Virus record (IMG/VR): IMGVR_UViG_3300026097_001055
Span: 1 to 64,000 of that record
DNA from: a virus
Reading direction: 5' to 3' (one strand)
Length of the DNA stretch: 64,000 bases
Shown: positions 12,068-45,030 of the stretch, piece by piece
Position numbering within the stretch: the first letter of the stretch is position 1
How the letters are laid out: each line of letters opens with the position of its first letter
The notes under the pieces: model-generated
What the model saw: only the letters and a program-made list of their open reading frames with translations
What the model was told of the DNA's origin: nothing
Databases searched by the model: none
Position numbers and translations under genes: made by a program

Positions 12068-12231
12068 AAAATAATTTTTTTAAAAAATACAATCAGGATT
12101 TATAGGTTATATGTGTAAGATCATTTATATTTGTCATTCCTTGTTTCCAATTTACTTTAGGTACAAAAATAGGATCATCGTTTGGTGGTCCTATTTTTAT
12201 TTATATATTTGTAAAAACAAAAACCAAAAAA

Positions 12232-12405
12232 ATGAAAGAATTATTAAGTGTTGGGATTAATGAAGATGGTGCTATTATGGTGCAGTCTAGTTTACCAAAA
12301 GAGGATCTAAAAACTCTACTAAGTGAATTATTAGAGAATATAGATGAAGGAAAGACTATTGATATAGAGTCTGATGATAATGATAAACCTAAATATCTAG
12401 CATAA
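12232..12405 (+). CDS. Small acidic protein (57 aa)
   Basis: Manual translation MKELLSVGINEDG...; preceded by TATATTTG and an AAAAACCAAAAAA leader. Confidence 0.65.
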   Translation: MKELLSVGINEDGAIMVQSSLPKEDLKTLLSELLENIDEGKTIDIESDDNDKPKYLA

Positions 12406-12542
12406 TGTCTAAAAGTACAGGTTTAGGAAAAAAAAGAAAAGATTCTAGAGTGTCCCGGCCTGGGGTGCATGCAAAGACTAAAACGTCCAAAAGTAAGAAA
12501 TCAAAGAATTATAAGAAATCTTATAAAGGTCAAGGTAGATAA
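12405..12542 (+). CDS. Small basic protein (45 aa), RPGVHAK...KNYKKSYKGQGR type
   Basis: Manual translation; TAATG stop-start overlap with the upstream gene. Confidence 0.7.
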   Translation: MSKSTGLGKKRKDSRVSRPGVHAKTKTSKSKKSKNYKKSYKGQGR

Positions 12543-12558
12543 ATTAAAAACCAAATAT

Positions 12559-12846
12559 ATGATAAATGAGTATAAAGTACCTACATTTGGCGAACAACTT
12601 GTAGGTATAGATTTTAATCCCTCCAACTCTGGAGAAGTAGCAGAAGTAAACGAGCTTTTTGCTAAGATTGCTAACATAATGGAAAAGAACTACAGGGAAC
12701 AGCCAAAACATGCTCTTAAGAGTTTATTGTTTGACAGTGCTGTTGGAGAAATCCTCAATGCCCAAATGAATGTAGTTAAGGTTATAACGTTAAAACATTT
12801 TAAACAAGAACAAGATGAGATTACTAGGGAAGAGAATAATGCTTAA
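12559..12846 (+). CDS. Helical-hairpin protein resembling the Acb2/Tad1-like family
   Basis: TFGEQLVGIDFNPS...AVGEILNAQMNVVKVIT pattern; start re-set to ATG 12559. Confidence 0.5.
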   Translation: MINEYKVPTFGEQLVGIDFNPSNSGEVAEVNELFAKIANIMEKNYREQPKHALKSLLFDSAVGEILNAQMNVVKVITLKHFKQEQDEITREENNA

Positions 12847-23446: not shown

Positions 23447-23961
23447 TAGTAAAATTATTTGACCTACAAAATGGTAAAATAGTGCCTTCAGAACATTGTT
23501 ACACTATGGGCACATTAAAAAACATAATGGATAAATATCCGGAAGATCATCTTAAGATTTATCAGTTCTTATTTTATATGACTTGTCCTGATCCAGATTC
23601 TAATCCTTTCTTTCATGTACCTCATGCAGATAAAGAAATATTAATATTTAATGAATTAGATGCTGAATTCTCTACAGAAGATGAACTTATTAGAAGAGCT
23701 TTAGGATTTTGTGAAACTTTATATGAAACTCCTATTAAAAGAGCTTATGATGGTATAAGCAAAGCTTTAGATAGAATTGCAAACTACATGGCTACGACAC
23801 CTATTACTGATGGTAAAGATGGTAATATAGGTCAAGTAAGAGCAATGGCTAAAGATTTTGAATCTATTAGACAATCTTTCAAAGGTGCTTATAAAGATCT
23901 TCAGGATGAACAAAAGTCTAGAATTAGAGGAGGTGGATCTATGGCTTATGATCAGAAATAA
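23443..23961 (+). CDS. Conserved protein upstream of terminase (possible small terminase)
   Basis: Position directly before TerL; C-terminal RIRGG. Confidence 0.55.
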   Translation: MIVKLFDLQNGKIVPSEHCYTMGTLKNIMDKYPEDHLKIYQFLFYMTCPDPDSNPFFHVPHADKEILIFNELDAEFSTEDELIRRALGFCETLYETPIKRAYDGISKALDRIANYMATTPITDGKDGNIGQVRAMAKDFESIRQSFKGAYKDLQDEQKSRIRGGGSMAYDQK

Positions 23962-26900
23962 TGGAAGAATTTATAATAGACATTCCTACTTGGGATAAGG
24001 GTAATTGGACCACAACTACTTTTAATTCTCTAGAAGAATTTAAAGAATATATACTTTCTATATTTAAACTTCCTGGTCAATACAAATTTAATAAAGATTT
24101 GTTAGAAGTAACTAAACAAGAAGCTTTTAATTTTGAAAAAAAAGATTACTATTGCACTAAGCCTTTTATGTCTAAAGATTATGTGGATTATTGGGATTTT
24201 GAAAAAGCTAAATGTAGAAAAGGCTTGATAGTTAAATCAGGTAAAGATTCTTGGTTTATTACTAGAGATTACTACATGTGGTTAAACTTCCTACCTATCT
24301 TTGATAAAGAAAAAACTAAGTTTGGTTTTGCTAAATTAAGAGATGCTCAGTATCACATGGCTCTATATGAACTATTAGCTGAGCTTCATCATAAACATGC
24401 TGCTATTCTCAAAAAGAGACAAATAGCTAGTGAACAACCTCATAGTGAACCTGTATTAGGAGAACACGGGTGGACAACTATGGGTGCTGTTCAACCAGGA
24501 GATAAGTTATGGAACCCTGACGGTACCCTTACTACAATTTTACATAAATCAAATAATGGAGTAAGTGACGTTTATGAATTTACTTTTGGTGATGGTAGAA
24601 CTACACGTTGTGGTATAGAACATAACTGGGAAGTTTATGATAAAGCAGCTAAAAAAACAAAAGTATTAAATACTAAAAAACTTTTAGAAATAGGGATATT
24701 TTCAACACCTGTTAAAAGTAATAAAAAAATATATAATAATTATAGATTTGCTATTCAGACTTGTAAGCCTATAGAATTATTATCATCCCCTGTTCCTGTT
24801 GACCCTTATGTATTAGGAGCTTTATTAGGAGATGGTTATATAAATAATAGATCTGTTTATATATCTGGAGCTGATCAAGAAGTATTTGATAATATTCAAA
24901 ATAATCTAGGCACTGATTATCTTTTAAAAGAAACAGGTTATATGAAACAAAGCATAACCTATAAGAAAAGATTTACACATACTGGTAAAAAATACTCAAA
25001 TGATCAATATGGTGTAAACCCATTATTAAGAGAGCTTATTAAATTAGGTTTAGGTAATAAAGGTAAAAATACTAAGTTTATACCAGATTGTTATAAAACA
25101 TCTTCTATTAAAGATAGGATAGCTCTTATACAAGGAATGATGGATACTGATGGTTATGTAAATGCTCAAGGTAATGATTTACATTTTACTAATGTAAATA
25201 AAAGACTAATTGATGATTTTACAGAAGTTGCTAGATCTTTAGGTTTAAAAGTAAAATTAGATACTAAAGAAAATAAAAACGGTTTATTTTATAGAGCACG
25301 TATATCAGGTGATATTCAATTTGATATATTTAAACTTACTAGAAAACAAGAAAGATTTAATAAAAGAAAAAGTAAAACAACATTTACATTAGTTCCGATA
25401 ACTAATATAACTAAATTAGATTATCAAGAACAATCTTCATGTATAGTAGTAGATAATCCTAATCATTTATATATTACTAGAGATTATATAGTAACTCATA
25501 ACTCGTACTTTCATGCAGCTAAACTTATAAATCAACTTTGGTTTGAAGAAGGTGTTACTCTTAAAATGGGTGCCGCTCTTAAAGATTATATAAATGATAA
25601 AGGTACATGGAAATTTTTAGATGAATATTCTAACTTTTTAAATGAGCATACAGCATGGTATAGACCGCTTAATCCTAAAAAAGTATTAATGTGGCAACAA
25701 AAGATTGAAGAAAAAGTAAATGGCCGCTCTAGAGATAAAGGATTAAAAGGAACTATACAAGGAATGTCTTTTGAAAAAGATCCTACAAATTCAGTAGGGG
25801 GTCCAGTTAAATACTTTTTTCATGAGGAAGCAGGTATTGCTCCAAAGATGGATCAAACTTATGAATACATTAGACCTGCTTTAAAATCAGGATTTGTAAC
25901 TACAGGTTTATTCATAGCTGCAGGTTCAGTTGGTGACTTAGATCAATGTGGTCCTCTTAAAGATATGATTAATCATCCTAAAGCAAATGATATATATGCA
26001 GTAGAAACTAATCTTATTGATGAAAAAGAAACTATAGGTCTATCAGGTTTGTTTATTCCGGAACAATGGTCAATGCCTCCTTATATAGATGATTATGGTA
26101 ATTCTTTAGTAGAAAAAGCTTTAAAGGCTTTAAGTGAACAATTTGCTGAATGGAAAAAAGATCTTACTCCAGAACAATATCAATTGCGTATATCTCAGCA
26201 CCCAAGGAATATTAAAGAAGCTTTTGCTACAAGAACTGTATCAAAATTTCCACAACATTTATTATCACAGCAAGCTGAAAGAATTAGAGAAAAAGAATAT
26301 GCTTATGAATTTTTAGACATCTTTCAAAATGCTAAAGGTGAACCTGAAGTTAAAACTACTAACAAGATTCCAGTATCTGAATTTCCTGTATCTAAAAAAG
26401 CAACTGATAAAACAGGTGCATTAGTAGTATGGGAAAGACCTGTAGAAAATCCAGACTTTGGAATGTATTTTGCATCTATAGATCCCGTGGGTGAAGGCCG
26501 CACAACTACTTCAGAATCACTATGTTCCATATATGTATATAAACGAAAGATTGAGGTAACTAAAGTCAATGGTGATGAAGTTACAACCTATGTAGAAAGA
26601 GATAAAGTAGTTGCTGCATGGTGTGGTAGGTATGATGATATTAACACCACTCATGAAAGACTAAGACTTATTATAGAATGGTATAATGCCAAAACTCTTG
26701 TAGAAAATAACATATCTCAGTTTATAAACTATATGATAGGTATGAATAAACAAAAATATTTAATAAGAAAAGATGAAATGGTTTTTCTTAAAGATTTAGG
26801 ATCTAATAGTACAGTATATCAAGAATATGGTTGGAAAAACACTGGTAGATTATTTAAAGATCATTTACTGAGTTATGTTATAGAGTATGTTAAAGAAACT

Positions 26901-27236
26901 ATAGATGAAAAAACTAAAGATGACGGTACTGTAGTTAAAAAAACTTATGGTGTTGAAAGAATTCCTGATCCTATGCTTATAGTAGAAATGCAAGCTTATG
27001 AAGAAGGTCTCAATGTTGATAGATTAGTTTCTTTTTCTGCACTTGTTGCTTATATGAAAATACTTGAATCTAATATGGGTTTGAAGAAAAGAATAGAAAA
27101 AGATGATGCAGCAAAAAAATTGGAAAAGTCAGAAAATTTGTTTAAATTGAATAAGAGTCCCTTCCGTCATGTAGGTAATTCTAATACTGTTTACGGAAAG
27201 AAAATTAAAAGAAGTGCGTTTAAAAATCTTAAATAA
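23961..27236 (+). CDS. terL: Terminase large subunit with intein
   Basis: LKKRQIAS..SY Walker A region, FFHEEAG Walker B, SIDPVGEG nuclease motif, LVENN and NVDRLV; position before portal. Confidence 0.92.
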   Translation: MEEFIIDIPTWDKGNWTTTTFNSLEEFKEYILSIFKLPGQYKFNKDLLEVTKQEAFNFEKKDYYCTKPFMSKDYVDYWDFEKAKCRKGLIVKSGKDSWFITRDYYMWLNFLPIFDKEKTKFGFAKLRDAQYHMALYELLAELHHKHAAILKKRQIASEQPHSEPVLGEHGWTTMGAVQPGDKLWNPDGTLTTILHKSNNGVSDVYEFTFGDGRTTRCGIEHNWEVYDKAAKKTKVLNTKKLLEIGIFSTPVKSNKKIYNNYRFAIQTCKPIELLSSPVPVDPYVLGALLGDGYINNRSVYISGADQEVFDNIQNNLGTDYLLKETGYMKQSITYKKRFTHTGKKYSNDQYGVNPLLRELIKLGLGNKGKNTKFIPDCYKTSSIKDRIALIQGMMDTDGYVNAQGNDLHFTNVNKRLIDDFTEVARSLGLKVKLDTKENKNGLFYRARISGDIQFDIFKLTRKQERFNKRKSKTTFTLVPITNITKLDYQEQSSCIVVDNPNHLYITRDYIVTHNSYFHAAKLINQLWFEEGVTLKMGAALKDYINDKGTWKFLDEYSNFLNEHTAWYRPLNPKKVLMWQQKIEEKVNGRSRDKGLKGTIQGMSFEKDPTNSVGGPVKYFFHEEAGIAPKMDQTYEYIRPALKSGFVTTGLFIAAGSVGDLDQCGPLKDMINHPKANDIYAVETNLIDEKETIGLSGLFIPEQWSMPPYIDDYGNSLVEKALKALSEQFAEWKKDLTPEQYQLRISQHPRNIKEAFATRTVSKFPQHLLSQQAERIREKEYAYEFLDIFQNAKGEPEVKTTNKIPVSEFPVSKKATDKTGALVVWERPVENPDFGMYFASIDPVGEGRTTTSESLCSIYVYKRKIEVTKVNGDEVTTYVERDKVVAAWCGRYDDINTTHERLRLIIEWYNAKTLVENNISQFINYMIGMNKQKYLIRKDEMVFLKDLGSNSTVYQEYGWKNTGRLFKDHLLSYVIEYVKETIDEKTKDDGTVVKKTYGVERIPDPMLIVEMQAYEEGLNVDRLVSFSALVAYMKILESNMGLKKRIEKDDAAKKLEKSENLFKLNKSPFRHVGNSNTVYGKKIKRSAFKNLK
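24432..25502 (+). mobile_element. Class 3 intein with LAGLIDADG homing endonuclease in TerL
   Basis: (S)EQPHSEPVL..GW..MG...GD start, EHNW (block B), LGALLGDG and IQGMMDTDG, SSCIVVD (block F), YIVTHN/S splice junction. Confidence 0.9.
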
Positions 27237-27241
27237 ATAAA

Positions 27242-30010
27242 ATGCAAGTAGTTTCAGCAATGCAGCTCAAAAAAGGAGCTAAGACTAAAGAAAATAGAAT
27301 GGGTGCGATAACGCAACCATTACAATTTTTGCCAAAAAAAGAAAAAGACCAAGAATGGGCTGCATGGAATATTGATTGGTTAGAATGGAATGGGCTTAAA
27401 CAAATAAAAAAGAAATCAAGAAGACTTCTTAAAAATTATAAATTAGCTCAGGGTGTAATAGATAAATCTGATTATATTGTAGAAGAAAATCCTGAACACA
27501 GAGATATCTTAGAATATCTTACTCAAGAAGATGATGCAGCATTAGAATTAAAATTTTATCCTATTATACCCAATGTTATAAATGTACTTACTTCAGAATT
27601 TGCAAAAAGAAACACTAAAGTAACCTATAGAGCTGTAGATGATTATTCATACAATGAGCTTATGGAACAAAAAAGAGTTGAAGTAGAAGAAGTTCTATTA
27701 GCAGAAGCTGAAAGTAAAATTCTTGCTGCTTTATTAGAACAAGGACTAGATCCACAATCAGAAGAAGCTCAACAACAACTTAACCCAGATAATTTAAAAA
27801 CTCTTCCTGAAATTGAAAACTTTTATAAAAAAGATTATAGATCTATGATTGAACAATGGGCTGATCATCAGCATAAAGTAGATCATGAAAGATTCAGAAT
27901 GGAAGAACTTGAAGAAACAGGTTTTAGAGATATGCTTGTTACAGATAGTGAATTCTATCATTTTAGAATGATGGAAGAAGATTATCATATAGAATTATGG
28001 AATCCTATACTTACTTTCTACCATAAGTCACCAGGCACCAAATATATGTCAGATGCTAATTGGATAGGTAAAACAGAAATGATTACTGTAGCAGATGCTA
28101 TTGATAAATACGGTTATATAATGGATGAAGATCAAACAGCTGCATTAGAAGCTGTATATCCTATTAGATCTGCAGGTTATATCATAGGTGGTCAGCAAAA
28201 TGATGGTAGTTTTTATGACACTAGTAGATCTCATGAATGGAACACTAATATGCCTTCATTAGCAATGAGACAATATACTTCTGCTGTAGGTATGAAAAGT
28301 GTTACTAATGGAGCTGATCCTATAAATGAAGTTTTACAAGAAAGTGAAGATTATGATAATGAAGGTACAGCTTTCTTAGTAAGAGAAACTATAGTATACT
28401 GGAAGTCTCAAAGAAAAGTAGGTCACCTTACTAAGATTTCTGATAATGGTGAAGTTGTTCAGGAAATTATAACTGAAGATTATAAAATTGTAGATAAACC
28501 TATTTATGATACAAGACTTTTTAAAAATAAATCTAAAGACAACTTAGTATTTGGAGAACATATAGATTGGATATGGATTAATGAAACTTGGGGTGGTGTA
28601 AAACTAGGACCAAACTTACCTAGCTTTTGGGGTATGAATAATCCTGATGGATTTGCTCCTATTTATTTAGGTATAGATAAAAATAAGATAGGACCTTTAA
28701 GGTTTCAGTTTAAAGGTAATGATAGTTTATATGGATGTAAAAATCCTGTAGAAGGAGCTGTATTTAATGATAGAAATGTTAAATCAGTTTCTTTAGTAGA
28801 TTTAATGAAAGCTCATCAGGTGGGATATAACCTAGTTAATAATCAAATTGCTGATATATTAGTAGATGAATTAGGTACTGTTATACTACTTGATCAAAAT
28901 GGATTACCTAAACATTCATTAGGAGAAGATTGGGGTAAAGGAAATTATGCTAAAGCTTATGCAGCTATGAAAAATTTTCAGATTCTTCCCTTAGATACAA
29001 CTATAACTAATACAGAAAATCCTTTAAATTTCCAGCATTTTCAAAAGTTAGACATGGAGCAGACTAATAGACTTATGTCTAGAATACAGTTAGCTAATCA
29101 TTTTAAACAACAGGCTTATGAAACTATTGGTATAACTCCACAAAGATTAGGTCAACAGATAAGTCAACAAGATACTGCTACGGGTATACAACAATCTGTT
29201 AATGCTTCTCATGCACAAACTGAAGTTTATTTTATACAACATTCAGATTATTTAATGCCTAGAGTACATGAAATGAGAACTAACTTGGCTCAGTATTATC
29301 ATTCAACTAAACCTTCATCTAGACTTACATATATGACAAGTAATGAAGAAAAAGTTAATTTTGAAATTAATGGTACTGATTTACTAATGAGAGATCTTAA
29401 TATATTTTGTTCTACAACAGCTAATCATAGACACATTTTAGAACAATTAAAACAATTAGCAATTACTAATAATACTACAGGAGCTTCTATTTATGATTTA
29501 GGAAAAGTTGTTCAGTCTGAATCTATAGCTGAACTTAATAATGTTATGAAATCTGCAGAACAAAAAGCACAACAACAACAACAAGAAGAACAACAACATC
29601 AACAACAGTTACAAGAACAAGAAATTCAAGCTCGTGCTGCTGAAGAGAAAGCTAAACTTGATTTTGAATCTACAGAAAAAGAAAAAGATAGAAGAAAAGA
29701 TATTCTTGTTGCTGAGATTAGATCTGCTGGATTTGGAGCTATGCAAGATAAAAATGAAAATATGCAATCTGACTACATAGATTACATGAAAGATCTTAAA
29801 GAAACACAACAGTATACTGAACAAACTAATTTGCAAAAAGAAAAAATGAATACTGATGCTATGCAGAAAACAGAAAAGCTGCAAATAGAAAGAGAAAAAC
29901 TTCAAGCACAAAGAGAAATAGCAGATAAACAACTACAAATAGCTAAAGAAAATAAAAATAAATGGGACTTTGCAAGTCCTAAAAATAAAAATAAAAAGAA
30001 AGATGAATAA
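27242..30010 (+). CDS. Portal protein (crAss-like)
   Basis: 922 aa directly after TerL; YPIIPNVINVL and GITPQRLGQ motifs; coiled-coil C-terminus. Confidence 0.88.
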   Translation: MQVVSAMQLKKGAKTKENRMGAITQPLQFLPKKEKDQEWAAWNIDWLEWNGLKQIKKKSRRLLKNYKLAQGVIDKSDYIVEENPEHRDILEYLTQEDDAALELKFYPIIPNVINVLTSEFAKRNTKVTYRAVDDYSYNELMEQKRVEVEEVLLAEAESKILAALLEQGLDPQSEEAQQQLNPDNLKTLPEIENFYKKDYRSMIEQWADHQHKVDHERFRMEELEETGFRDMLVTDSEFYHFRMMEEDYHIELWNPILTFYHKSPGTKYMSDANWIGKTEMITVADAIDKYGYIMDEDQTAALEAVYPIRSAGYIIGGQQNDGSFYDTSRSHEWNTNMPSLAMRQYTSAVGMKSVTNGADPINEVLQESEDYDNEGTAFLVRETIVYWKSQRKVGHLTKISDNGEVVQEIITEDYKIVDKPIYDTRLFKNKSKDNLVFGEHIDWIWINETWGGVKLGPNLPSFWGMNNPDGFAPIYLGIDKNKIGPLRFQFKGNDSLYGCKNPVEGAVFNDRNVKSVSLVDLMKAHQVGYNLVNNQIADILVDELGTVILLDQNGLPKHSLGEDWGKGNYAKAYAAMKNFQILPLDTTITNTENPLNFQHFQKLDMEQTNRLMSRIQLANHFKQQAYETIGITPQRLGQQISQQDTATGIQQSVNASHAQTEVYFIQHSDYLMPRVHEMRTNLAQYYHSTKPSSRLTYMTSNEEKVNFEINGTDLLMRDLNIFCSTTANHRHILEQLKQLAITNNTTGASIYDLGKVVQSESIAELNNVMKSAEQKAQQQQQEEQQHQQQLQEQEIQARAAEEKAKLDFESTEKEKDRRKDILVAEIRSAGFGAMQDKNENMQSDYIDYMKDLKETQQYTEQTNLQKEKMNTDAMQKTEKLQIEREKLQAQREIADKQLQIAKENKNKWDFASPKNKNKKKDE

Positions 30011-30137
30011 TAAGAAGTTATTTATAGCTATATAATCATAAAAAAAATATATCTAAATATTAGTTTTTTTAAATTTTATAAGTTTATTTGTTTAGAAATA
30101 CTTATATTAAAGTATAACATAAAAACCAAAAAAAGTT

Positions 30138-31433
30138 ATGTCACAAGCAAATGAAATAATTAATGATTCTACAACAGTAGAAGAAACAGATGTAAACCTA
30201 GATGATATATTCGGTGTAGGTGCAGACAATGTATTGTTACCTAATGAAGAAAAAAAGTCAGTATTCACAAAAGAAACTGTAGATACTTCATTTATAGATA
30301 ATACTGATAATGAACCTAAAGAAGAAGTTGTAAACAGTTCTTCAGAAGAAGATTCAAACTCTGAGTCTAATACTGAAACTTTAACAACCGAAAAAAACTT
30401 AGATGAGAATATTGATCAAGAAATTGATGAGTTAGATAAACTTATTAATGAAGAAGAAGAAATTGAATCAAAAGGTGGTAGACCTAAACTTGATAAAAGT
30501 GGTTTATTAGAAATAGCTACTAAAATGATTGATGAAGGTTCATTAATGCCATTTGATGATGATAAACCTTTAGAAGATTATACAGCAACTGATTTTAGAG
30601 AACTTTTTGAAGTTAACTTTCAAGAAAGAGAAAATAAAGTAAAAGAAAAAGTACCTCAAGAATTTTTTGCATCTTTACCTAGAGAGTTACAAGCAGCAGC
30701 TAAGTATGTTGCTGATGGAGGTCAAGATTTAAAAGGTTTATTTAGAACTTTAGGTCAAGTTGAGGAAATGCTTGATTTAGACCCTAGTAATGAAACACAT
30801 CAAGAAGAAATTGCTAGACAATTCTTTTATGCTACTCAGTTTGGAACTCCAGAAGAAATAGAAGCAGAAATTGAAGATTTAAAAGATTTAGATAGATTAG
30901 GTAAAAAAGCTGAACAGTTTAAACCTAAGTTAGATAAAATGCAAGAAGAAATTGTTGCAAGAAAATTAGCTGAACAAGAAGTACAAAAACAAAAACAAGA
31001 ACAAGCTGCACAAGCTTATACTGAGAATGTTTATAACACTCTTGTTAAAGGTGAAATTAGTGGTGTTAAATTAGATCGTAAAACACAAAGTATGCTATAC
31101 TCTGGATTAGTACAACCTAATTATCCTTCTATTTCTGGTAAGCAAACTAATTTACTAGGACATCTTTTAGAAAAGTATCAATTTGTAGAACCTAGGCATG
31201 ATCTTATTGCTGAAGCTTTATGGTTACTTCAGGATCCAGATGGATATAAAAATAAAATTAAAACTATAGGTTCTACTGAAGCAACTGCTAACACAGTAAG
31301 AAAATTAAAAACAGCTGAAGGTCAAAGAGCAACTGTTTCCGGAGGTACTAGAACACAGAAAGAAAAAGCTCCTAGAAAACCTCAAGCAAGAAGAACGATA
31401 CAAAAACCTAATAAAAATATTTTTAGTAGATAA
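30138..31433 (+). CDS. Putative scaffolding protein (crAss gene 77-like)
   Basis: Acidic N-terminus, helical; lies between portal and major capsid protein. Confidence 0.7.
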   Translation: MSQANEIINDSTTVEETDVNLDDIFGVGADNVLLPNEEKKSVFTKETVDTSFIDNTDNEPKEEVVNSSSEEDSNSESNTETLTTEKNLDENIDQEIDELDKLINEEEEIESKGGRPKLDKSGLLEIATKMIDEGSLMPFDDDKPLEDYTATDFRELFEVNFQERENKVKEKVPQEFFASLPRELQAAAKYVADGGQDLKGLFRTLGQVEEMLDLDPSNETHQEEIARQFFYATQFGTPEEIEAEIEDLKDLDRLGKKAEQFKPKLDKMQEEIVARKLAEQEVQKQKQEQAAQAYTENVYNTLVKGEISGVKLDRKTQSMLYSGLVQPNYPSISGKQTNLLGHLLEKYQFVEPRHDLIAEALWLLQDPDGYKNKIKTIGSTEATANTVRKLKTAEGQRATVSGGTRTQKEKAPRKPQARRTIQKPNKNIFSR

Positions 31434-31465: not shown

Positions 31466-33082
31466 ATGAGTACACCAGTTTTAAACAATGGTATCTTTCT
31501 ACGAGATACAGCTTACAATGCTAGTTCACATGTAGATTCTTACCACCTGGTTAACATGTTGAAAGACGCAGAACCTATGGATATGGGGCCAGTAGACCTT
31601 TGGGCTATGGCACAAAAAGTAGAAATGCCTCTTTATCAAATGGCTAACTTTGGAGGTAAGAATGTTGTTATGGTTGACAATGCAAGAGGAGAGTATAAAT
31701 GGCAAACACCAGTTAGTCAAGACTTACCTTACATTATTGAAGACTTAGAACCTGCTAATGAGTACAAAGGAGTAGACGGAACAACTTTCCGTATTAAGAC
31801 CAACAAGCGTGAATTTGGTCATGGAGACATTATTACTTATGATAAGTATAATGGTATTGAACTTTACATCACTGATGAAGACATTCTTCCTACAGGTGAT
31901 GGTTTTGTTTATACTGTTAGTCTTGTTAATAATGGTAATGCACGTTTCTTTGATAACAGATTCCTTGCTTCAGGTACTAAGTATTTCCGTAAAGGTTCTG
32001 CTCGTGGTGAATATGGAGAAAGATTCTCTGATATTACTACAGGTGCAGGATTCCGTGAGTTCTATAACTATGTAGGAGGTGCAGAAGCACACGTGCATTA
32101 TTCAATTTCTTCTCGTGCTGACCTTATGATTAAGGGTGGTATGAATGCAGACGGTACAGTTCCAGTAACTGAAATCTGGAGAAACTTTGATAAAACTGTA
32201 GATCCATCCATTAACTCTCTTGAGGACATGGTTAAAGTTATGGGTAAAGACAAAGTAAAGAAAGCTTTTGATAATGGAGATTTATCACGTACTTTCCTTA
32301 CTCAAATGGAATCAGCTCATTTAACTAAAATTGCTAAAGATATTGAGACATACCTTATGTGGGGTCATGGTGGACGTGTTCGTCAAGATGGTCCAGATGA
32401 TGTTAGATTATCAGTAGGTCTTTGGAAGCAATTGGATAACTCTTTCAAAAGAGTATATAACAAGAACAACTTTACATTAGATTTATTCCGTGGAGAAATT
32501 TATAATTTCTTTAATGGTAAAGTTGAGTTTGAAGGTCCAGATCCAAAACGTGAGTTAATTGTACAAACTGGTATGGCCGGTATGCGTATGGTTAATGAAG
32601 CTATTGCTAATGAAGCTGTTAACTCTGGTCTTGTTATTCAAGCTGCAGATATCGGTGCAATCACTGGTAAAGGTATGGACTTGAATTTTGGATTCTCTTA
32701 CACTTCTTATGTTATTCCTTTCTTAGCTAACGTTAAGTTTGTAGTTAATCCAGCATTTGATAATGTTCATACAAATGATATTGAGAACCCAATCATTGAT
32801 GGTTACCCATTATCATCTTATTCTTTCATCATCTTTGATATTACTGATAACACTAATGATAACATATTCTTATTGAAGTTATCTTGGGATAATCAGTTGA
32901 AATGGTGGTATCAGAATGGTACTATGGATTACATGGGACGTAGCCAAGGATTCCAGTCTTCTGGACAATTTAATGGATATCGTGTAATGATGTCACAAAC
33001 AATGCCTGCTATTTGGGTTAAGGATCCAACTAAGGTTCTTAAAATAGTAATGAGAAACCCAATTACTGGAGGAAGTTTCTAA
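31466..33082 (+). CDS. Major capsid protein (crAss-like)
   Basis: 538 aa after scaffold; strongly biased codons; GLWKQL, VNPAFD and IWVKDPTK..KI motifs; followed by a terminator. Confidence 0.88.
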   Translation: MSTPVLNNGIFLRDTAYNASSHVDSYHLVNMLKDAEPMDMGPVDLWAMAQKVEMPLYQMANFGGKNVVMVDNARGEYKWQTPVSQDLPYIIEDLEPANEYKGVDGTTFRIKTNKREFGHGDIITYDKYNGIELYITDEDILPTGDGFVYTVSLVNNGNARFFDNRFLASGTKYFRKGSARGEYGERFSDITTGAGFREFYNYVGGAEAHVHYSISSRADLMIKGGMNADGTVPVTEIWRNFDKTVDPSINSLEDMVKVMGKDKVKKAFDNGDLSRTFLTQMESAHLTKIAKDIETYLMWGHGGRVRQDGPDDVRLSVGLWKQLDNSFKRVYNKNNFTLDLFRGEIYNFFNGKVEFEGPDPKRELIVQTGMAGMRMVNEAIANEAVNSGLVIQAADIGAITGKGMDLNFGFSYTSYVIPFLANVKFVVNPAFDNVHTNDIENPIIDGYPLSSYSFIIFDITDNTNDNIFLLKLSWDNQLKWWYQNGTMDYMGRSQGFQSSGQFNGYRVMMSQTMPAIWVKDPTKVLKIVMRNPITGGSF

Positions 33083-33130: not shown

Positions 33131-33155
33131 AATAAATATAAAAACCAAAAAAAAG

Positions 33156-34169
33156 ATGAGTGAAAATTTCACAATGGTAGAAGTACCAACAGACAAAAAA
33201 ACAAAAATTGCTATCAGACCTTTTGTTGATAAGCAAGTTGAGAACATGGGTCTAGAGACCTACGGACAAGCGTTGTATGATGGTGTAGTACACTATGAAC
33301 AATTAGCATGTTTAGAGAATAACGGTGTAATTAGATATCTTACAGGATTAAATGAATTTGCTCCTGAGATTAAACAATTACCTAAAGAAATGCGTGAAGC
33401 TAGAGTTAAGCATATTCGTGAAGCTATAGCAGATTTAGAAAAAGAATTAGCATCTAATGTAATAGATACAGAAGATACTGAATTTTGGAACAAGGTTCAA
33501 TTATTAAGACCTAATAATACTGAATTTTGGAATAAGATATCAATCCAATGCAGTAATGAACCCACTTATTTAGACATGACCAATCCATATGACCGAATTA
33601 AGCTTTATGCTATTGAGGCTGGAGGATTTGATATAGTTGCTAAAAGTTATGAGGATGCAAAAACAAAAAGCAAACCTCCTAAGTTTTATTTAGACAAAGA
33701 AGAAGAAACAGTATCTACAAGAACTGAGTACAAAAAATTACGTAATAAAGCTCTTTCTGAACTTGAAAAACTTTTTGCTAAAAATACTACTAAGTTATTT
33801 TATATTGCTAAAGTTGTAGATATTAATAGTGTACAGTATAAGAAAGATACTCCTAAAGATATTCTTTATGATAATATGGATAAACATATTCATGGAGAAG
33901 GAGGTGAATCTAATATGGAACGTGCAGCTAAGTCTTTCTTAGATGCTGTAAATTCTAATATGGAAACCCTTAAACTTAGAGCTGTAGTAAAAGATTCAGC
34001 TTATTATAAATTAATTTCTACCAAATCTGATGGGTATTTTTATCATATGAAATCAGGTACTGTGTTAGGTAGAAACGTTTCTGATGTAGTAGAATTTTTA
34101 AAGAATCCTATGAATGATGACATTTTTAAAATTCTAAATACAGAAATTGAAAAATTGTGGAATATTTAA
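33156..34169 (+). CDS. Conserved crAss gene-75-like protein
   Basis: Synteny after the capsid gene; NTEFW and LGRNVSDVVEFLKNPMN motifs. Confidence 0.65.
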   Translation: MSENFTMVEVPTDKKTKIAIRPFVDKQVENMGLETYGQALYDGVVHYEQLACLENNGVIRYLTGLNEFAPEIKQLPKEMREARVKHIREAIADLEKELASNVIDTEDTEFWNKVQLLRPNNTEFWNKISIQCSNEPTYLDMTNPYDRIKLYAIEAGGFDIVAKSYEDAKTKSKPPKFYLDKEEETVSTRTEYKKLRNKALSELEKLFAKNTTKLFYIAKVVDINSVQYKKDTPKDILYDNMDKHIHGEGGESNMERAAKSFLDAVNSNMETLKLRAVVKDSAYYKLISTKSDGYFYHMKSGTVLGRNVSDVVEFLKNPMNDDIFKILNTEIEKLWNI

Positions 34170-39882: not shown

Positions 39883-39903
39883 AATCTAATAAAAACCAAA
39901 ATT

Positions 39904-40026
39904 ATGAATAAGTGCACAAACTGTGGAAAAGCATTAAATTGCGGATGTAAAAGAAGAAAAGCATCAGATGGTAAATCATGTTGTACAGCTTGTCTTAATA
40001 AGTATGAAAATAGTATTAAAAAATAA
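39904..40026 (+). CDS. Small Cys-rich, metallothionein-like protein (40 aa)
   Basis: Manual translation MNKCTNCGKALNCGCKRRKASDGKSCCTACLNKYENSIKK; AAAACCAAAA leader. Confidence 0.65.
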   Translation: MNKCTNCGKALNCGCKRRKASDGKSCCTACLNKYENSIKK

Positions 40027-40028
40027 TC

Positions 40029-41294
40029 ATGGCTGTTCATCAGATACTTACTCTTGTTAGTTGTTGCAATGATTTAACTCTTCAGTTTAATTATGAGCAA
40101 CCAGATTTATTTTATATTGATGAATCTACTTATTATTATAATGGTAAGTGTTTCACAGCTTATATAACTAATGAGTATCAATTTCCTATACCTATTCTAG
40201 GTCCTCAACCTACTCCTGGAGGATCTGCATTTGGTACTAATGATTATTTAGAAAATGTAGCTTATTTTCTTGAAGGCAGTGATTGTGATGATCCTTTATG
40301 TCCTGATTGTGATGAACCAGAAGCTAATTGTTATTATATAGAAAATTGTTTTGATCCTACTTTAAATTTTATTGCAATTATAAGCAATCCAGGAAGTATA
40401 CAATTAGGTTATAGTTATTCTTTTGATTTATCAAACGTAGATAATTTACCTGCTGACTATAATAATTGTTGGTTTATTGAATCAAGTGAAAATTGTAATG
40501 ATTTAACACCAACAATAGAAATTACAACAAGTTATGAATCTTGTGAAAGTTGTGCAGCTGTAGAAATACCTCCTTGTTTTAAGTTAATTGATTGTAATAC
40601 AGAAGAAGAACTAATATATTCTGGAGATTTATTAGAACAATATATTAACAAAGTTATTCAAGTTAACATAGATGGTATAATAAGATGCTTCACTGTAGAA
40701 ATTACAACATGTACAGAAGAATCATTAGAGTCACTATTTGAGAATATTGTTTTAGATTGTTTTACAGAATGTGAAAAATGTTTACCAGAATGTACATGTA
40801 CTAGAGCTAAAAATTTAGCAGGAGAACCTAGAAAACTAAGCTATATTGATTGTAATGGAGATCAAAAAGAAACAGATGAAGTTATAGGAGCTAACAAATT
40901 AAGTAAAAAATATTGTGTTCAGTACTGGACATCTCAAGATATAGAAGTAATAAATTTTGGTGATTGTGTAGATAACTCTTGTCCAGAAATACCTTTACCA
41001 AAAAGAGTTGTTACTCCAGGTTATAATACTCCTATATGTACACCAACACAATATGAAAGAATTGTCTGTAGATATGCAGAGATAAAGTATAAAGAAGTTC
41101 TTTCTAAAAGATATGGTATAGAAGATTGTTGTGATGATGAAAGTTTAGCTAATGATATAAAACATGAACTTATTCATTTACAAATGTTAGAAGATCCTGA
41201 ATATGTTTGCGTAAAAGACCCAAAAGCTTGTCCAACAAAATGCGGATATATAAGTATGAATATAGTACATGAGTGTTCTCCAGAAATAGAATAA
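40029..41294 (+). CDS. Cys-rich repeat structural protein
   Basis: Repeated C(Y/F)xLxxC...CxxC units. Confidence 0.7.
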   Translation: MAVHQILTLVSCCNDLTLQFNYEQPDLFYIDESTYYYNGKCFTAYITNEYQFPIPILGPQPTPGGSAFGTNDYLENVAYFLEGSDCDDPLCPDCDEPEANCYYIENCFDPTLNFIAIISNPGSIQLGYSYSFDLSNVDNLPADYNNCWFIESSENCNDLTPTIEITTSYESCESCAAVEIPPCFKLIDCNTEEELIYSGDLLEQYINKVIQVNIDGIIRCFTVEITTCTEESLESLFENIVLDCFTECEKCLPECTCTRAKNLAGEPRKLSYIDCNGDQKETDEVIGANKLSKKYCVQYWTSQDIEVINFGDCVDNSCPEIPLPKRVVTPGYNTPICTPTQYERIVCRYAEIKYKEVLSKRYGIEDCCDDESLANDIKHELIHLQMLEDPEYVCVKDPKACPTKCGYISMNIVHECSPEIE

Positions 41295-42768: not shown

Positions 42769-43644
42769 ATGGAAAATAAATGTACACATACAGAACCTAA
42801 TTGTGGTTGCGTTGATGGACCTATGACTACTCCACCAGCATGTCCACCTTTACCTTGTCCTAATCCTCAACCTTGTTCATCTTATACAGATGCACAATGT
42901 GTGATTTACACAGGCGATGATCTAATATGTGACCAGCAAATAGTAGTAGAAAATAATGCAAATTTAAATGATATAATTATTGAATTAGTTTCAAGAATTT
43001 GTGAAGCTGCTGGTAACATTCCTCAAACAGTTGTTGTTGGCGGAAATAATATTGATGTAAGTTCTAATACTGTTGGTTCAACAACAACTTATACAGTATC
43101 TCAACCAAGTAAAATATTTTTTTATGAAGAATTTATAAGCGATATTGATATAGTTGATAATGCTCCAGCTCCGGGTCCAGATAATTACTTTTTTCCAATA
43201 GGTTATGAAATATTAACTTTTCAAAACACTTACCTTGACCCTACTGTTTTTAAAATAAATGTTTCTTATAATACAGACCTTCCAGATATTATAGGTATAC
43301 CAGATAATGCTTTAAATAACTGGGTAGATGGTGCAATTGTAACAACTCTCGGAGGAGTAGATACTATTCAGTATGAAACTTTAAGTCTAACTAATATGGA
43401 AGTATATTTATGGGATACTGTAAATAATTCTGTAATATCAGGATCTACAGTAGATACAGTAAGAACTGAGCCTGGTGATCATGCTGTTGATGTTAGATTT
43501 ACTAATCAAAAAAAACCTATAAATACTTCTTTTTTTAAAGTAGTTACGTTACAACCAGGTGAATTTGTTTCTTTAAAATTTAAAAGTAAATCAGGTTCTA
43601 TAGGTAGATTATTAAAAGCCCAAATTTTAGTAGAAGAATTGTAA
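42769..43644 (+). CDS. Cys-rich fibre/structural protein
   Basis: N-terminal DAQCVIYTG related to SSNCVIWNG of ORF 41363. Confidence 0.6.
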   Translation: MENKCTHTEPNCGCVDGPMTTPPACPPLPCPNPQPCSSYTDAQCVIYTGDDLICDQQIVVENNANLNDIIIELVSRICEAAGNIPQTVVVGGNNIDVSSNTVGSTTTYTVSQPSKIFFYEEFISDIDIVDNAPAPGPDNYFFPIGYEILTFQNTYLDPTVFKINVSYNTDLPDIIGIPDNALNNWVDGAIVTTLGGVDTIQYETLSLTNMEVYLWDTVNNSVISGSTVDTVRTEPGDHAVDVRFTNQKKPINTSFFKVVTLQPGEFVSLKFKSKSGSIGRLLKAQILVEEL

Positions 43645-43683
43645 AAAATAGATCGTGGTTTTTTGGTTTTTACAACGATCAGA

Positions 43684-43720
43684 AACCCAAGACCCTCACT
43701 AAAGTGGGGGTTTTGTTTTT
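43684..43720 (+). terminator. Rho-independent terminator
   Basis: CCCTCACT-AA-AGTGGGGG hairpin followed by a T tract. Confidence 0.65.
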
Positions 43721-43774
43721 AAATTTGCATAACTTGCTAATATCATTTATATTTACTATATTAAATATATACAT

Positions 43775-44362
43775 ATGCGTCCAAAATTTAAAATACCAGA
43801 TCTTAATGCTCCTCGTTTTTATCAACGTTCACATAACATTATTACAAAAGAATTTATAGAAAATTTTGTAAAAAAATATCCAAAGTATAAGGGTATAACC
43901 AAAAGTGAAATAAAAAAAATAGTTAAAGTTTTTAATACAAATTCTTGGAAAGAGACTTTAGAACATAGAGATGGTATAAAGTTACCAGAAAGTGTGGGTT
44001 CTTTATTTATAGGAACATGTCCTCCACCTAAAGTTCAATACAATCCAGATTATAATTTATTGCATAAAAAAAATATAGTAGCTTCTAATAAAAATTGGGA
44101 AACTGATGGTAATATAGCTAAAATATTTTTTACTTCATATAGTGAAAAATATAAATATAGATTCAGAGAGCACTGGATGTTTCATCCAGTACGAGTGTTT
44201 AAAAGAACTGTTGCTAAAGAATATCCTAAAAATTGGACTATGTTTCATAAAGTAGATCCAAAGAAAAAGCTTTCTGATCAATTTTTAAAAGCAATTAATA
44301 AAGATAAATTTGAAAGAGCATCTAAGAAAAAATTAGAAAATTATAATGATTTAGAACTATGA
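43775..44362 (+). CDS. IHF/HU-like protein (crAss IHF-like)
   Basis: IKKIVKVFN...DGIKLPESVGSLFI...F.P.RVFKR.VAK pattern. Confidence 0.6.
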   Translation: MRPKFKIPDLNAPRFYQRSHNIITKEFIENFVKKYPKYKGITKSEIKKIVKVFNTNSWKETLEHRDGIKLPESVGSLFIGTCPPPKVQYNPDYNLLHKKNIVASNKNWETDGNIAKIFFTSYSEKYKYRFREHWMFHPVRVFKRTVAKEYPKNWTMFHKVDPKKKLSDQFLKAINKDKFERASKKKLENYNDLEL

Positions 44363-45030
44363 CTACAATAGGAGAAAGTATAACTAGAGTACGTAATATA
44401 ATTAAAGCTGTAAAAGAAGATGCTTTTGTTACAGACAGACAAATCTATTACAATATTATAAAGTATGGTAGTTCTTTACTTAAGAGAGAAGACAATCAAA
44501 ACAAACTTATGAGAATGAGTAGTCTTATGACTACTTTACCTTATGTAGAATTAATTGATACAGATAAGATTGATGCTGCTTGTTTTGGGGTTTATTCGGG
44601 ATGTTTTTTTAAAAGATCAAAGGAAAAGCTACCAGCTTTTTTTCAAGGCACTTATGGACCCTTAATTAGAACAGTAACATCTATTGATGGTTCACAAAAT
44701 CTTTATCAAACAGAACCTAGTATTTTTGTTAGACTTTCTAAATCTACTAATTTTAAGTATAATAAAAAACTATATTTTTGGTATCTTAATGAATATATTT
44801 ATGTTGCAAATGTAGATTGGGATGCAATTAAAGTAGAGGGATTATTTGAAGGTTCTGTTGCAGATTTTCTCTGTCCTGATGAAAAATCTTGTGATCCTAG
44901 ACAAGATCAATTATTACCTTTTCCAGAATATCTTTTTTCTGAGATAGAACAATATGTATTAAAAGAATTTACCACGACTTTACAGTTACCTACATCAGGT
45001 GCTGATGATAGTCAAAACCCGAATAGATAA
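44359..45030 (+). CDS. Tail ring/adaptor protein
   Basis: TDRQI, RSKEKLP, YLNEYIY and EGLFE pattern; crAss-like tail synteny. Confidence 0.6.
   Translation: MTTIGESITRVRNIIKAVKEDAFVTDRQIYYNIIKYGSSLLKREDNQNKLMRMSSLMTTLPYVELIDTDKIDAACFGVYSGCFFKRSKEKLPAFFQGTYGPLIRTVTSIDGSQNLYQTEPSIFVRLSKSTNFKYNKKLYFWYLNEYIYVANVDWDAIKVEGLFEGSVADFLCPDEKSCDPRQDQLLPFPEYLFSEIEQYVLKEFTTTLQLPTSGADDSQNPNR

Follow-up and report, generated by a model that had tools for sequence, protein, structure and literature searches.

A module of two hairpins at positions 43651–43720 of the window (the 64,000-nt stretch of phage DNA analysed here) is a 3'-UTR RNA element which has been conserved and has no counterpart in Rfam. The structure of the module, its conservation, its complementarity to a motif in the leaders of several phage genes, and the positions of module and motif are established directly. 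The sequence suggests that the element is an antisense RNA which pairs with translation-initiation regions and probably represses them, a reading to which we assign a probability of about one half.

The window covers the first 64 kb of a single contig of 114,890 bp with a G+C content of 29.6%, the lowest in the compared set of genomes. Because a crAss-type major capsid protein (31466–33082; Pfam Crass_capsid, 2.1e-29), tail ring protein 2 (44359–45030; Pfam CrAss_Ring_2, 9.8e-22), a portal (27242–30010; PHROGs) and a large terminase (23961–27236; PHROGs) are encoded, the phage was assigned to an uncultured lineage of the Crassvirales. A run of giant genes is also encoded, after the portal and large terminase genes. 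The large-terminase ORF is unusually long (1091 aa), and its N-terminal residues 70–410 match primase and DnaC-like P-loop families besides terminase families. No record similar at the DNA level was returned by a nucleotide search of the phage collection, and nucleotide and protein searches of the same collection gave no close cultured relative; the nearest cultured capsid protein, that of Leptolyngbya phage Lbo-JY46, has 28% identity. The host is probably a member of the Bacteroidota, as suggested by the few Shine-Dalgarno (SD) words, the A-rich leaders and a relative binned with Chitinophagaceae. An SD-like word precedes 3 of the 120 predicted genes of the phage, and its leaders contain 52% A and 8% C. 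The relative in question, L519 (JBIPNK010000148.1, 117,852 bp), is near-complete and was binned in a freshwater Chitinophagaceae MAG from Lake Mendota, which is a weak hint to the host or an artefact of binning. Passages in two published studies state that Bacteroidota ribosomes do not use SD pairing (PMC7797042, PMC6847099). Genes were called as simple longest-ATG ORFs, and the comparison set consisted of twelve whole or large relatives, whose genes were called crudely.

The ORF upstream of the module, on the plus strand of the ORF list (42769–43644, 291 aa), lies in the tail-fibre region and is fast-evolving, with one relative in IMG/VR and three in metagenomes (56–66% identity). Its stop codon (43642–43644) stands 6 nt before the first hairpin, and the element thus lies in its 3' UTR. 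Hairpin 1 (43651–43680, plus strand) is formed by the arms GATCGT (43651–43656) and ACGATC (43675–43680), which make 6 bp and close an 18-nt loop, GGTTTTTTGGTTTTTACA (43657–43674). The U/G-rich core of this loop, UUUUUUGGUUUUU at 43659–43671, is the reverse complement of the 13-mer AAAAACCAAAAAA and would serve as an 'anti-leader' seed. A single-stranded spacer (43681–43687, plus strand; sequence and fold) leads to an intrinsic terminator (43688–43720, plus strand; terminator scan and centroid fold). The latter has a G+C-rich stem of 12 pairs at 43688–43715 with a 4-nt loop and then a T-run to about 43720, that is, the stem-loop followed by a U-tract on the transcribed strand which is characteristic of such terminators. 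The stem, the loop and the terminator that had been described in the first-pass annotation were therefore all found in place, both in the sequence and in the terminator scan. When the RNA was folded, the minimum free energy (MFE) structure held both hairpins (−25.2 kcal/mol, z = −3.2 to −3.8). Hairpin 1 is absent from the centroid, which keeps the terminator only, so that it must be regarded as thermodynamically marginal in the window phage.

A promoter-like sequence, TTGCTA-N17-TATATT, was found by promoter scan at 43734–43762 on the plus strand, and behind it stands an operon comprising the 195-aa gene at 43775, the gene for ring protein 2 and cargo genes. This putative promoter would identify the element as the last part of a transcription unit. 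The element occupies the place of a 3'-UTR-derived sRNA, between the stop codon of a coding gene and the terminator of its mRNA. A conserved promoter in front of the hairpin is not visible, because the upstream ORFs are non-homologous among the relatives. No Rfam family reached its threshold in a cmscan of 43400–43900 with E up to 10, which gave sub-threshold chance matches only, the best being Phe_leader, whose 27.7 bits fall short of the gathering score of 55; nor was the covariance model of the Rfam C4 family (phage antisense RNA c4) matched. A search of the literature for the motif words or for crAss sRNAs gave nothing relevant.

In IMG/VR, 180 relatives of the 195-aa gene that follows the element were found, at identities of 51% or less. 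The hairpin is kept in more than 100 related phage sequences, with more than 50 loci from uncultured aquatic crAss-like phages. In clade 1 the space upstream of the 195-aa gene consists of the hairpin, the spacer, the G+C-rich terminator and a promoter-like block in which TTTGCTAAAG..TAGTATATTAA is conserved. This block directly follows the terminator (43724–43774 in the window, about 2945–3000 in L006 and other clade-1 loci), and it might be the counterpart of the sigma-70-like middle/late promoters that were described in Cellulophaga phage phi14:2. In clade 2 the same hairpin-terminator module is found one gene further upstream, and an extra gene with a terminator of its own stands between the element and the 195-aa gene. 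A lower helix of 4 bp, CAAC...GUUG, extends the clade-2 hairpin across an internal loop (L030, L036, L070 and others).

The stems of the relatives vary widely (GUUACAG/CUGUGAC, GUUGCAG/CUGUAAC, GUGAUGG/CUAUCAC and GUGGAG/CUCUAC, as against GAUCGU/ACGAUC in the window). The loop stays constant despite this divergence, as UUUGUUGGUUU(U), with the invariant core UUGUUGGUU(U). A covariance model was built from ten clade-2 hairpins. It gave exactly one match per locus in 51 loci, all of them on the gene-sense (plus) strand, and a single hairpin copy in each whole genome searched. In these 51 loci 99.4% of the cells of the stem are paired and six of its seven pairs have changed on both sides, values that none of 500 shuffles reached; they were taken from the model-based alignment A4, which leans towards structure, and the controls with slid partners, which gave 23–76% pairing, argue that the signal is real. 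A4 was used since the two MAFFT alignments (A1 and A2) were structurally inconsistent. Several of the pairs are G-U on the sense strand and would be A-C on the other, which indicates that the structure is an RNA on the mRNA strand. When IMG/VR was scanned with the clade-1 stem fixed and the loop left free, all 41 terminator-linked matches had the core UUGUUGGUUU. The setting is kept as well: the hairpin starts 1–13 nt after the stop codon of non-homologous upstream ORFs in 33 of 39 loci, the spacer is about 6–17 nt long in all relatives, and a G+C-rich terminator follows the hairpin in every one of them. The folds of the relatives show the two-hairpin structure, with the centroid equal to the MFE. 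Beyond the window, at 88800–88873 of genome G000, a small minus-strand gene is followed by a 3' UTR which, like the element, contains the linker AUCAGAAA and a terminator. This site (88.8 kb) was considered as a second element and rejected, as it has no hairpin of the same design and no complementarity of at least 9 nt to start regions.

The counterpart of the loop was found in front of genes. In the window, the 13-mer AAAAACCAAAAAA has exact plus-strand copies at 12219, 30121 and 33140 and, in the loop, a minus-strand copy at 43659–43671; the whole 114,890-bp genome holds no further exact copy. With up to one mismatch allowed, 8 matches were counted in the window against 1.47 ± 1.26 expected, and none of 100 shuffles reached 8. 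The copy at 12219–12231 (plus strand) abuts, with a gap of 0 nt, the ATG at 12232 of a 57-aa ORF, the first gene of the rightward block, and this leader motif lies downstream of a TAnnTTTG box. A shorter form, AAAAACCAAA, at 12546–12555 (plus strand) ends 3 nt before the ATG at 12559, an in-frame start within ORF 12469–12846. The real start of that ORF is probably ATG 12559 and not 12469. Between the two leader-motif genes, at 12406–12543, there is an unlisted ORF of 45 aa that is very basic (Lys/Arg/Ser-rich). The copy at 30121–30133 (plus strand) stands 4 nt before the ATG at 30138 of a 431-aa gene located between the portal and the major capsid genes, and the orthologues of this gene have AAAACCAAC in their leaders. 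A box similar to the promoter-like block of the relatives, TATATTAAA, was noticed upstream of the 431-aa gene. The copy at 33140–33152 (plus strand) stands 3 nt before the ATG at 33156 of a conserved 337-aa gene (33156–34169), which comes after the major capsid gene and that gene's terminator. Finally, AAAAACCAAAA at 39891–39901 (plus strand) ends 2 nt before the ATG at 39904 of a 40-aa zinc-finger ORF. This leader, 3.7 kb upstream of the hairpin, belongs with it to one predicted transcription unit.

It can be seen that the exact sense copies claimed at about 12219, 30121 and 33140 are there, 0–4 nt before the ATG, and that the shorter matches claimed near 12547 and 39892 are recovered at 12546/12547 and 39891/39892 before ATG 12559 and ATG 39904. 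The labels 'scaffold' and 'gene-75-like', which had been attached to the genes behind 30121 and 33140, found no support in family, PDB-sequence or fold matches: the 431-aa and 337-aa proteins gave no match in Pfam, PHROG or PDB sequences, and the fold model was mediocre (pLDDT 63) and had no match in the PDB. The 337-aa protein is very conserved: within the clade its identity is 67–78%, and 3361 homologues in the database have E <= 1e-30; closer homologues (P0002–P0006) have 81–83% identity. Its N-terminal 190 residues are predicted with low confidence.

In the relatives, AAAACCAA/AAACCAAC ranks among the top 8-mers by enrichment in the 22 nt ahead of start codons in most of the 12 genomes, and no A/C-rich word is more leader-specific than AAAACCAAC(AA) in the genomes that bear the hairpin. 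All 84 permutations of A6C3 were counted as a control. The four with the highest counts in leaders are all windows of AAAACCAACAAA; each is present there 15–27 times out of 59–77 genome-wide, while the other permutations have 9 leader occurrences at most; in this count leaders make up 1.3% of the sequence. The enrichment in leaders is therefore not a matter of general A/C richness. Of 82 upstream occurrences of the motif, 56 end 0–9 nt before the ATG, and in 40 of the 82 the motif core ends 5–9 nt from it. The motif is found at orthologous genes, among them the gene of about 430 aa before the capsid gene, that of about 337 aa after it, and the small zinc-finger gene. In the leader of the 337-aa gene AAAACCAAC is present in about 70 of the 78 closest relatives, often in tandem, and the zinc-finger gene, 4–6 kb upstream of the hairpin, has a perfect AAACCAACAA leader in 14 of 14 distinct clade-1 loci. 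Tandem motifs before a single start were seen in many relatives, among them L088 (G002 40212–40232), L176, L214, G014 (20816) and G015 (65740), as for example AAACCAACAAAAACCAACAAA. The motif also stands after the terminator of the capsid gene, with no room for a promoter, which indicates that it works at the RNA level and is no part of a promoter. Folding predicts no structure in the leaders, and the idea of a kissing loop, which calls for a conserved hairpin in the leader, was rejected for that reason. Among cultured phages, Lbo-JY46 lacks the leader motif at its orthologous start sites. In phi14:2 the motif is not enriched, and the covariance model gave one weak match, inside a coding region; having neither motif enrichment nor a proper hairpin, phi14:2 makes its published RNA-seq data (bioRxiv 10.1101/2020.03.07.982082) uninformative for the present question.

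The invariant core of the loop is the exact complement of the leader motif, so that UUGUUGGUU(U) faces AAAACCAAC(AA) as the seed of a 3'-UTR-derived sRNA faces its conserved target sites. Perfect matches between a genome's own loop and its own leaders are 9–13 nt long in genomes with a G-type loop and 14 nt in the window phage. Foreign loops match the window leaders over 6–9 nt, and the window loop matches most foreign leaders over 8 nt. The complementarity that is universal amounts to 8–10 nt, is A/U-rich and is worth about −7 to −13 kcal/mol. A genome-wide free-energy scan fails to set the start sites apart, since numerous imperfect duplexes reach scores as good.

Compared with its relatives, the loop of the window phage carries a G-to-U change, and the five leaders of this phage all have the matching C-to-A change. 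The base after AAACCAA is A in five and C in none of its leaders, as against 19 A and 32 C in the others pooled (Fisher p = 0.011). The same stem with a U-type loop is present in metagenome contig L227, whose neighbouring protein has 63% identity; since L227 is diverged, the changed loop has been maintained. Under a pairing model, genomes with U-type loops (UUUUUUGGUUU) would be expected to carry AAACCAAA-type leaders before the 431-aa, 337-aa and zinc-finger genes, and those with G-type loops to carry AAACCAAC/U. There are counter-examples, however: G009, G005, G008, G011 and G016 combine A-type leaders at some genes with a GUUGG-type loop, and G017, like G016, does so at one gene (both came out of IMG/VR scans for the loop and for the A-type leader, in which the other matches were mostly unrelated and of low complexity). 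The peripheral loop base does not covary with the leaders, and the leader at 12232 is already A-type in the nearest relative with a G-type loop. The loop-leader co-variation is a single lineage event, comprising the loop of the window and L227 and the leaders of the window. Moreover, both changes in the window are GC-to-AT in the most AT-rich of the genomes, and parallel AT drift might have produced them. In view of the counter-examples and of the peripheral base that does not covary, the pairing that is firmly supported is that of the 8–10-nt core.

Conservation of the loop alongside the leader motif, on which the first-pass annotation had staked its proposal, is thus borne out in outline: the hairpin covaries, its core is invariant, and the motif stands at orthologous starts. 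The concerted change of loop and leaders is matched in one lineage, but it is weaker than a clean compensatory pattern, given G009 and the similar genomes and the peripheral positions. The wider proposal of a 3'-UTR-derived RNA that co-regulates the leader-motif genes is partly supported: a separate small RNA, action in trans, repression and the 'late' class of all the targets are putative parts of it.

Taken together, we propose the following mechanism. A conserved two-hairpin module of about 70 nt stands at the 3' end of the tail-fibre transcription unit. Its hairpin 1 displays a U/G-rich loop (UUGUUGGUU in relatives, UUUUUUGGUUUUU in the window) and hairpin 2 is the terminator. The loop may pair with the single-stranded, SD-less leader motif AAAACCAA(C/A)AA, 0–9 nt upstream of the AUG, in the mRNAs of the genes flanking the major capsid gene, of the zinc-finger gene in the same operon, of the first gene of the rightward block and of others. 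The duplex would span from −1 to about −17, inside the window of 30S binding, which makes repression by occlusion the likeliest outcome; the target mRNAs would depend on an open, A-rich leader for initiation. Pairing might take place in trans or within one long transcript. In this way the synthesis of the target proteins would be tied to the amount of the tail-operon transcript. That the RNA accumulates, that it pairs, and the sign of the effect are what we infer.

The same pairing might have the opposite effect, and the RNA might be a positive factor that stabilises the motif-bearing mRNAs or enhances their translation, either through a long-range 5'-3' contact in a polycistronic late mRNA or as an adaptor that recruits ribosomes. 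We consider this unlikely. It would be in keeping with the 40 of 82 motif cores at an SD-like spacing of 5–9 nt, with the zinc-finger leader and the hairpin being in one predicted transcription unit, and with the tandem motifs of the relatives, which resemble enhancer dosage. A duplex adjoining the AUG normally blocks 30S binding, however; the leaders are already unstructured and A-rich, hence optimal, so that activation is unneeded; and nothing suggests that the hairpin RNA binds ribosomes. Ribosomes of the host type ignore the SD sequence, according to passages of the two studies named above (PMC7797042, PMC6847099); this would leave room for a surrogate. In the boldest form of this idea, which we hold to be very improbable, the hairpin RNA would be a recruitment adaptor supplied by the phage and not a repressor: its loop would pair with the AAAACCAAC leader 5–9 nt from the AUG, at SD-like spacing, and guide ribosomes, or the 3' end of the long mRNA itself, to chosen starts of virion genes. 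If true, it would amount to an orthogonal virus-encoded SD/anti-SD-like or closed-loop system.

Three other readings do without pairing, and each of them leaves part of the data unexplained. An invariant loop on a covarying stem is also typical of hairpins that are recognised by proteins, the energy of pairing is modest and matched elsewhere in the genome, and co-variation with the leaders is imperfect. The hairpin may thus be a site for a phage or host RNA-binding protein, a protector of the 3' end or a helper of termination, with a functionless complementarity to the leaders, though we doubt it: the chance of a given 9-mer in such a loop is estimated from base frequencies at ~1e-5 to 1e-4, and neither the identity of the loop core with the exact complement of the top leader-specific A/C word nor the matching leader changes in the sole lineage with a changed loop would be accounted for. 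The observation that every copy in the window phage, the inverted one included, changed together would fit a double-stranded DNA site for a phage or host regulator that works in either orientation, the loop copy being an inverted site; some genes have the motif immediately after a TAnnTTTG box, where an operator might be placed. This is very unlikely, as the motif copies are strictly sense-oriented and tied to the ATG rather than to promoters, and also occur directly after terminators where no promoter fits; the inverted copy is always in a covarying stem with sense-only G-U pairs, between a stop codon and a terminator, and a DNA operator does not require a covarying RNA stem. There is also little probability in a plain bipartite terminator region for which the 13-nt match and the family-wide matches of 8–10 nt are coincidences of low-complexity, AT-rich sequence. 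A- and T-runs are indeed common at 30% G+C, the hairpin of the window is weak, and the whole window was scanned for any match, which entails multiple testing. Coincidence is disfavoured by the match count unreached in 100 shuffles, by a loop that is invariant across completely diverged stems and by the permutation control that excludes general A/C richness.

As a putative antisense RNA the element may be compared with several known systems. The c4 antisense RNA of phages P1 and P7, reportedly described by Citron and Schuster in 1990, is likewise encoded by a phage and has short loop-exposed sequences complementary to the target mRNA, which occlude the ribosome-binding region (here a prediction), and in both cases the regulator and a target share one transcription unit (here the zinc-finger gene, again as predicted). 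There is no relationship to c4 in sequence or structure, however; c4 serves one immunity operon of a temperate phage, whereas the element here is carried in the 3' UTR of a crAss-like phage operon for virion genes and would address a leader module of several genes, and its targets lack SD sequences. The sar RNA of P22 and the OOP RNA of lambda are also phage antisense RNAs that act on phage mRNAs, but they are cis-encoded and fully complementary to one target each, in contrast to the element here, which lies on the same strand as its putative targets and 3.7–31 kb away from them. With the enterobacterial 3'-UTR sRNAs (CpxQ, DapZ, SroC) it shares the location behind a stop codon and ahead of the intrinsic terminator of the same mRNA, a conserved seed, a terminator hairpin with a U-tail and several predicted targets in initiation regions. 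The sRNAs of that type depend on Hfq or ProQ and on processing by RNase E; Bacteroidota are not known to have Hfq. Their seed is in the linear 5' end, whereas here it is in a hairpin loop and the separate small RNA is putative. In Bacteroides, sRNAs such as GibS pair with start regions that lack SD sequences, and the predicted antisense pairing to A-rich SD-less initiation regions would be similar to theirs and within the same host phylum; those sRNAs are chromosomal stand-alone genes and non-homologous to the element, and here the regulator would be viral and its target a conserved leader module. The RegA protein of phage T4 resembles it in that one phage factor acts on a similar short sequence at many phage mRNA starts, a translational regulon, with the difference that the recogniser here would be an RNA.

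CrAss-like phages rank with the most abundant phages of gut and aquatic microbiomes, yet hardly anything is known of how they control gene expression after transcription, and the choice and regulation of start sites in SD-less Bacteroidota are still being worked out. The invariant 9–10-nt loop and the matching leader module at orthologous virion genes make up a compact, testable pair, in a phage family whose marker protein has more than 3,000 database homologues. Should the pairing prove untrue, there remains in the hairpin a new conserved structured RNA motif that Rfam does not contain. If it is true, it would be the first RNA regulon described for the Crassvirales and a natural case of antisense control over SD-less initiation, and it would provide a ready orthogonal leader/anti-leader pair for engineering Bacteroidota.
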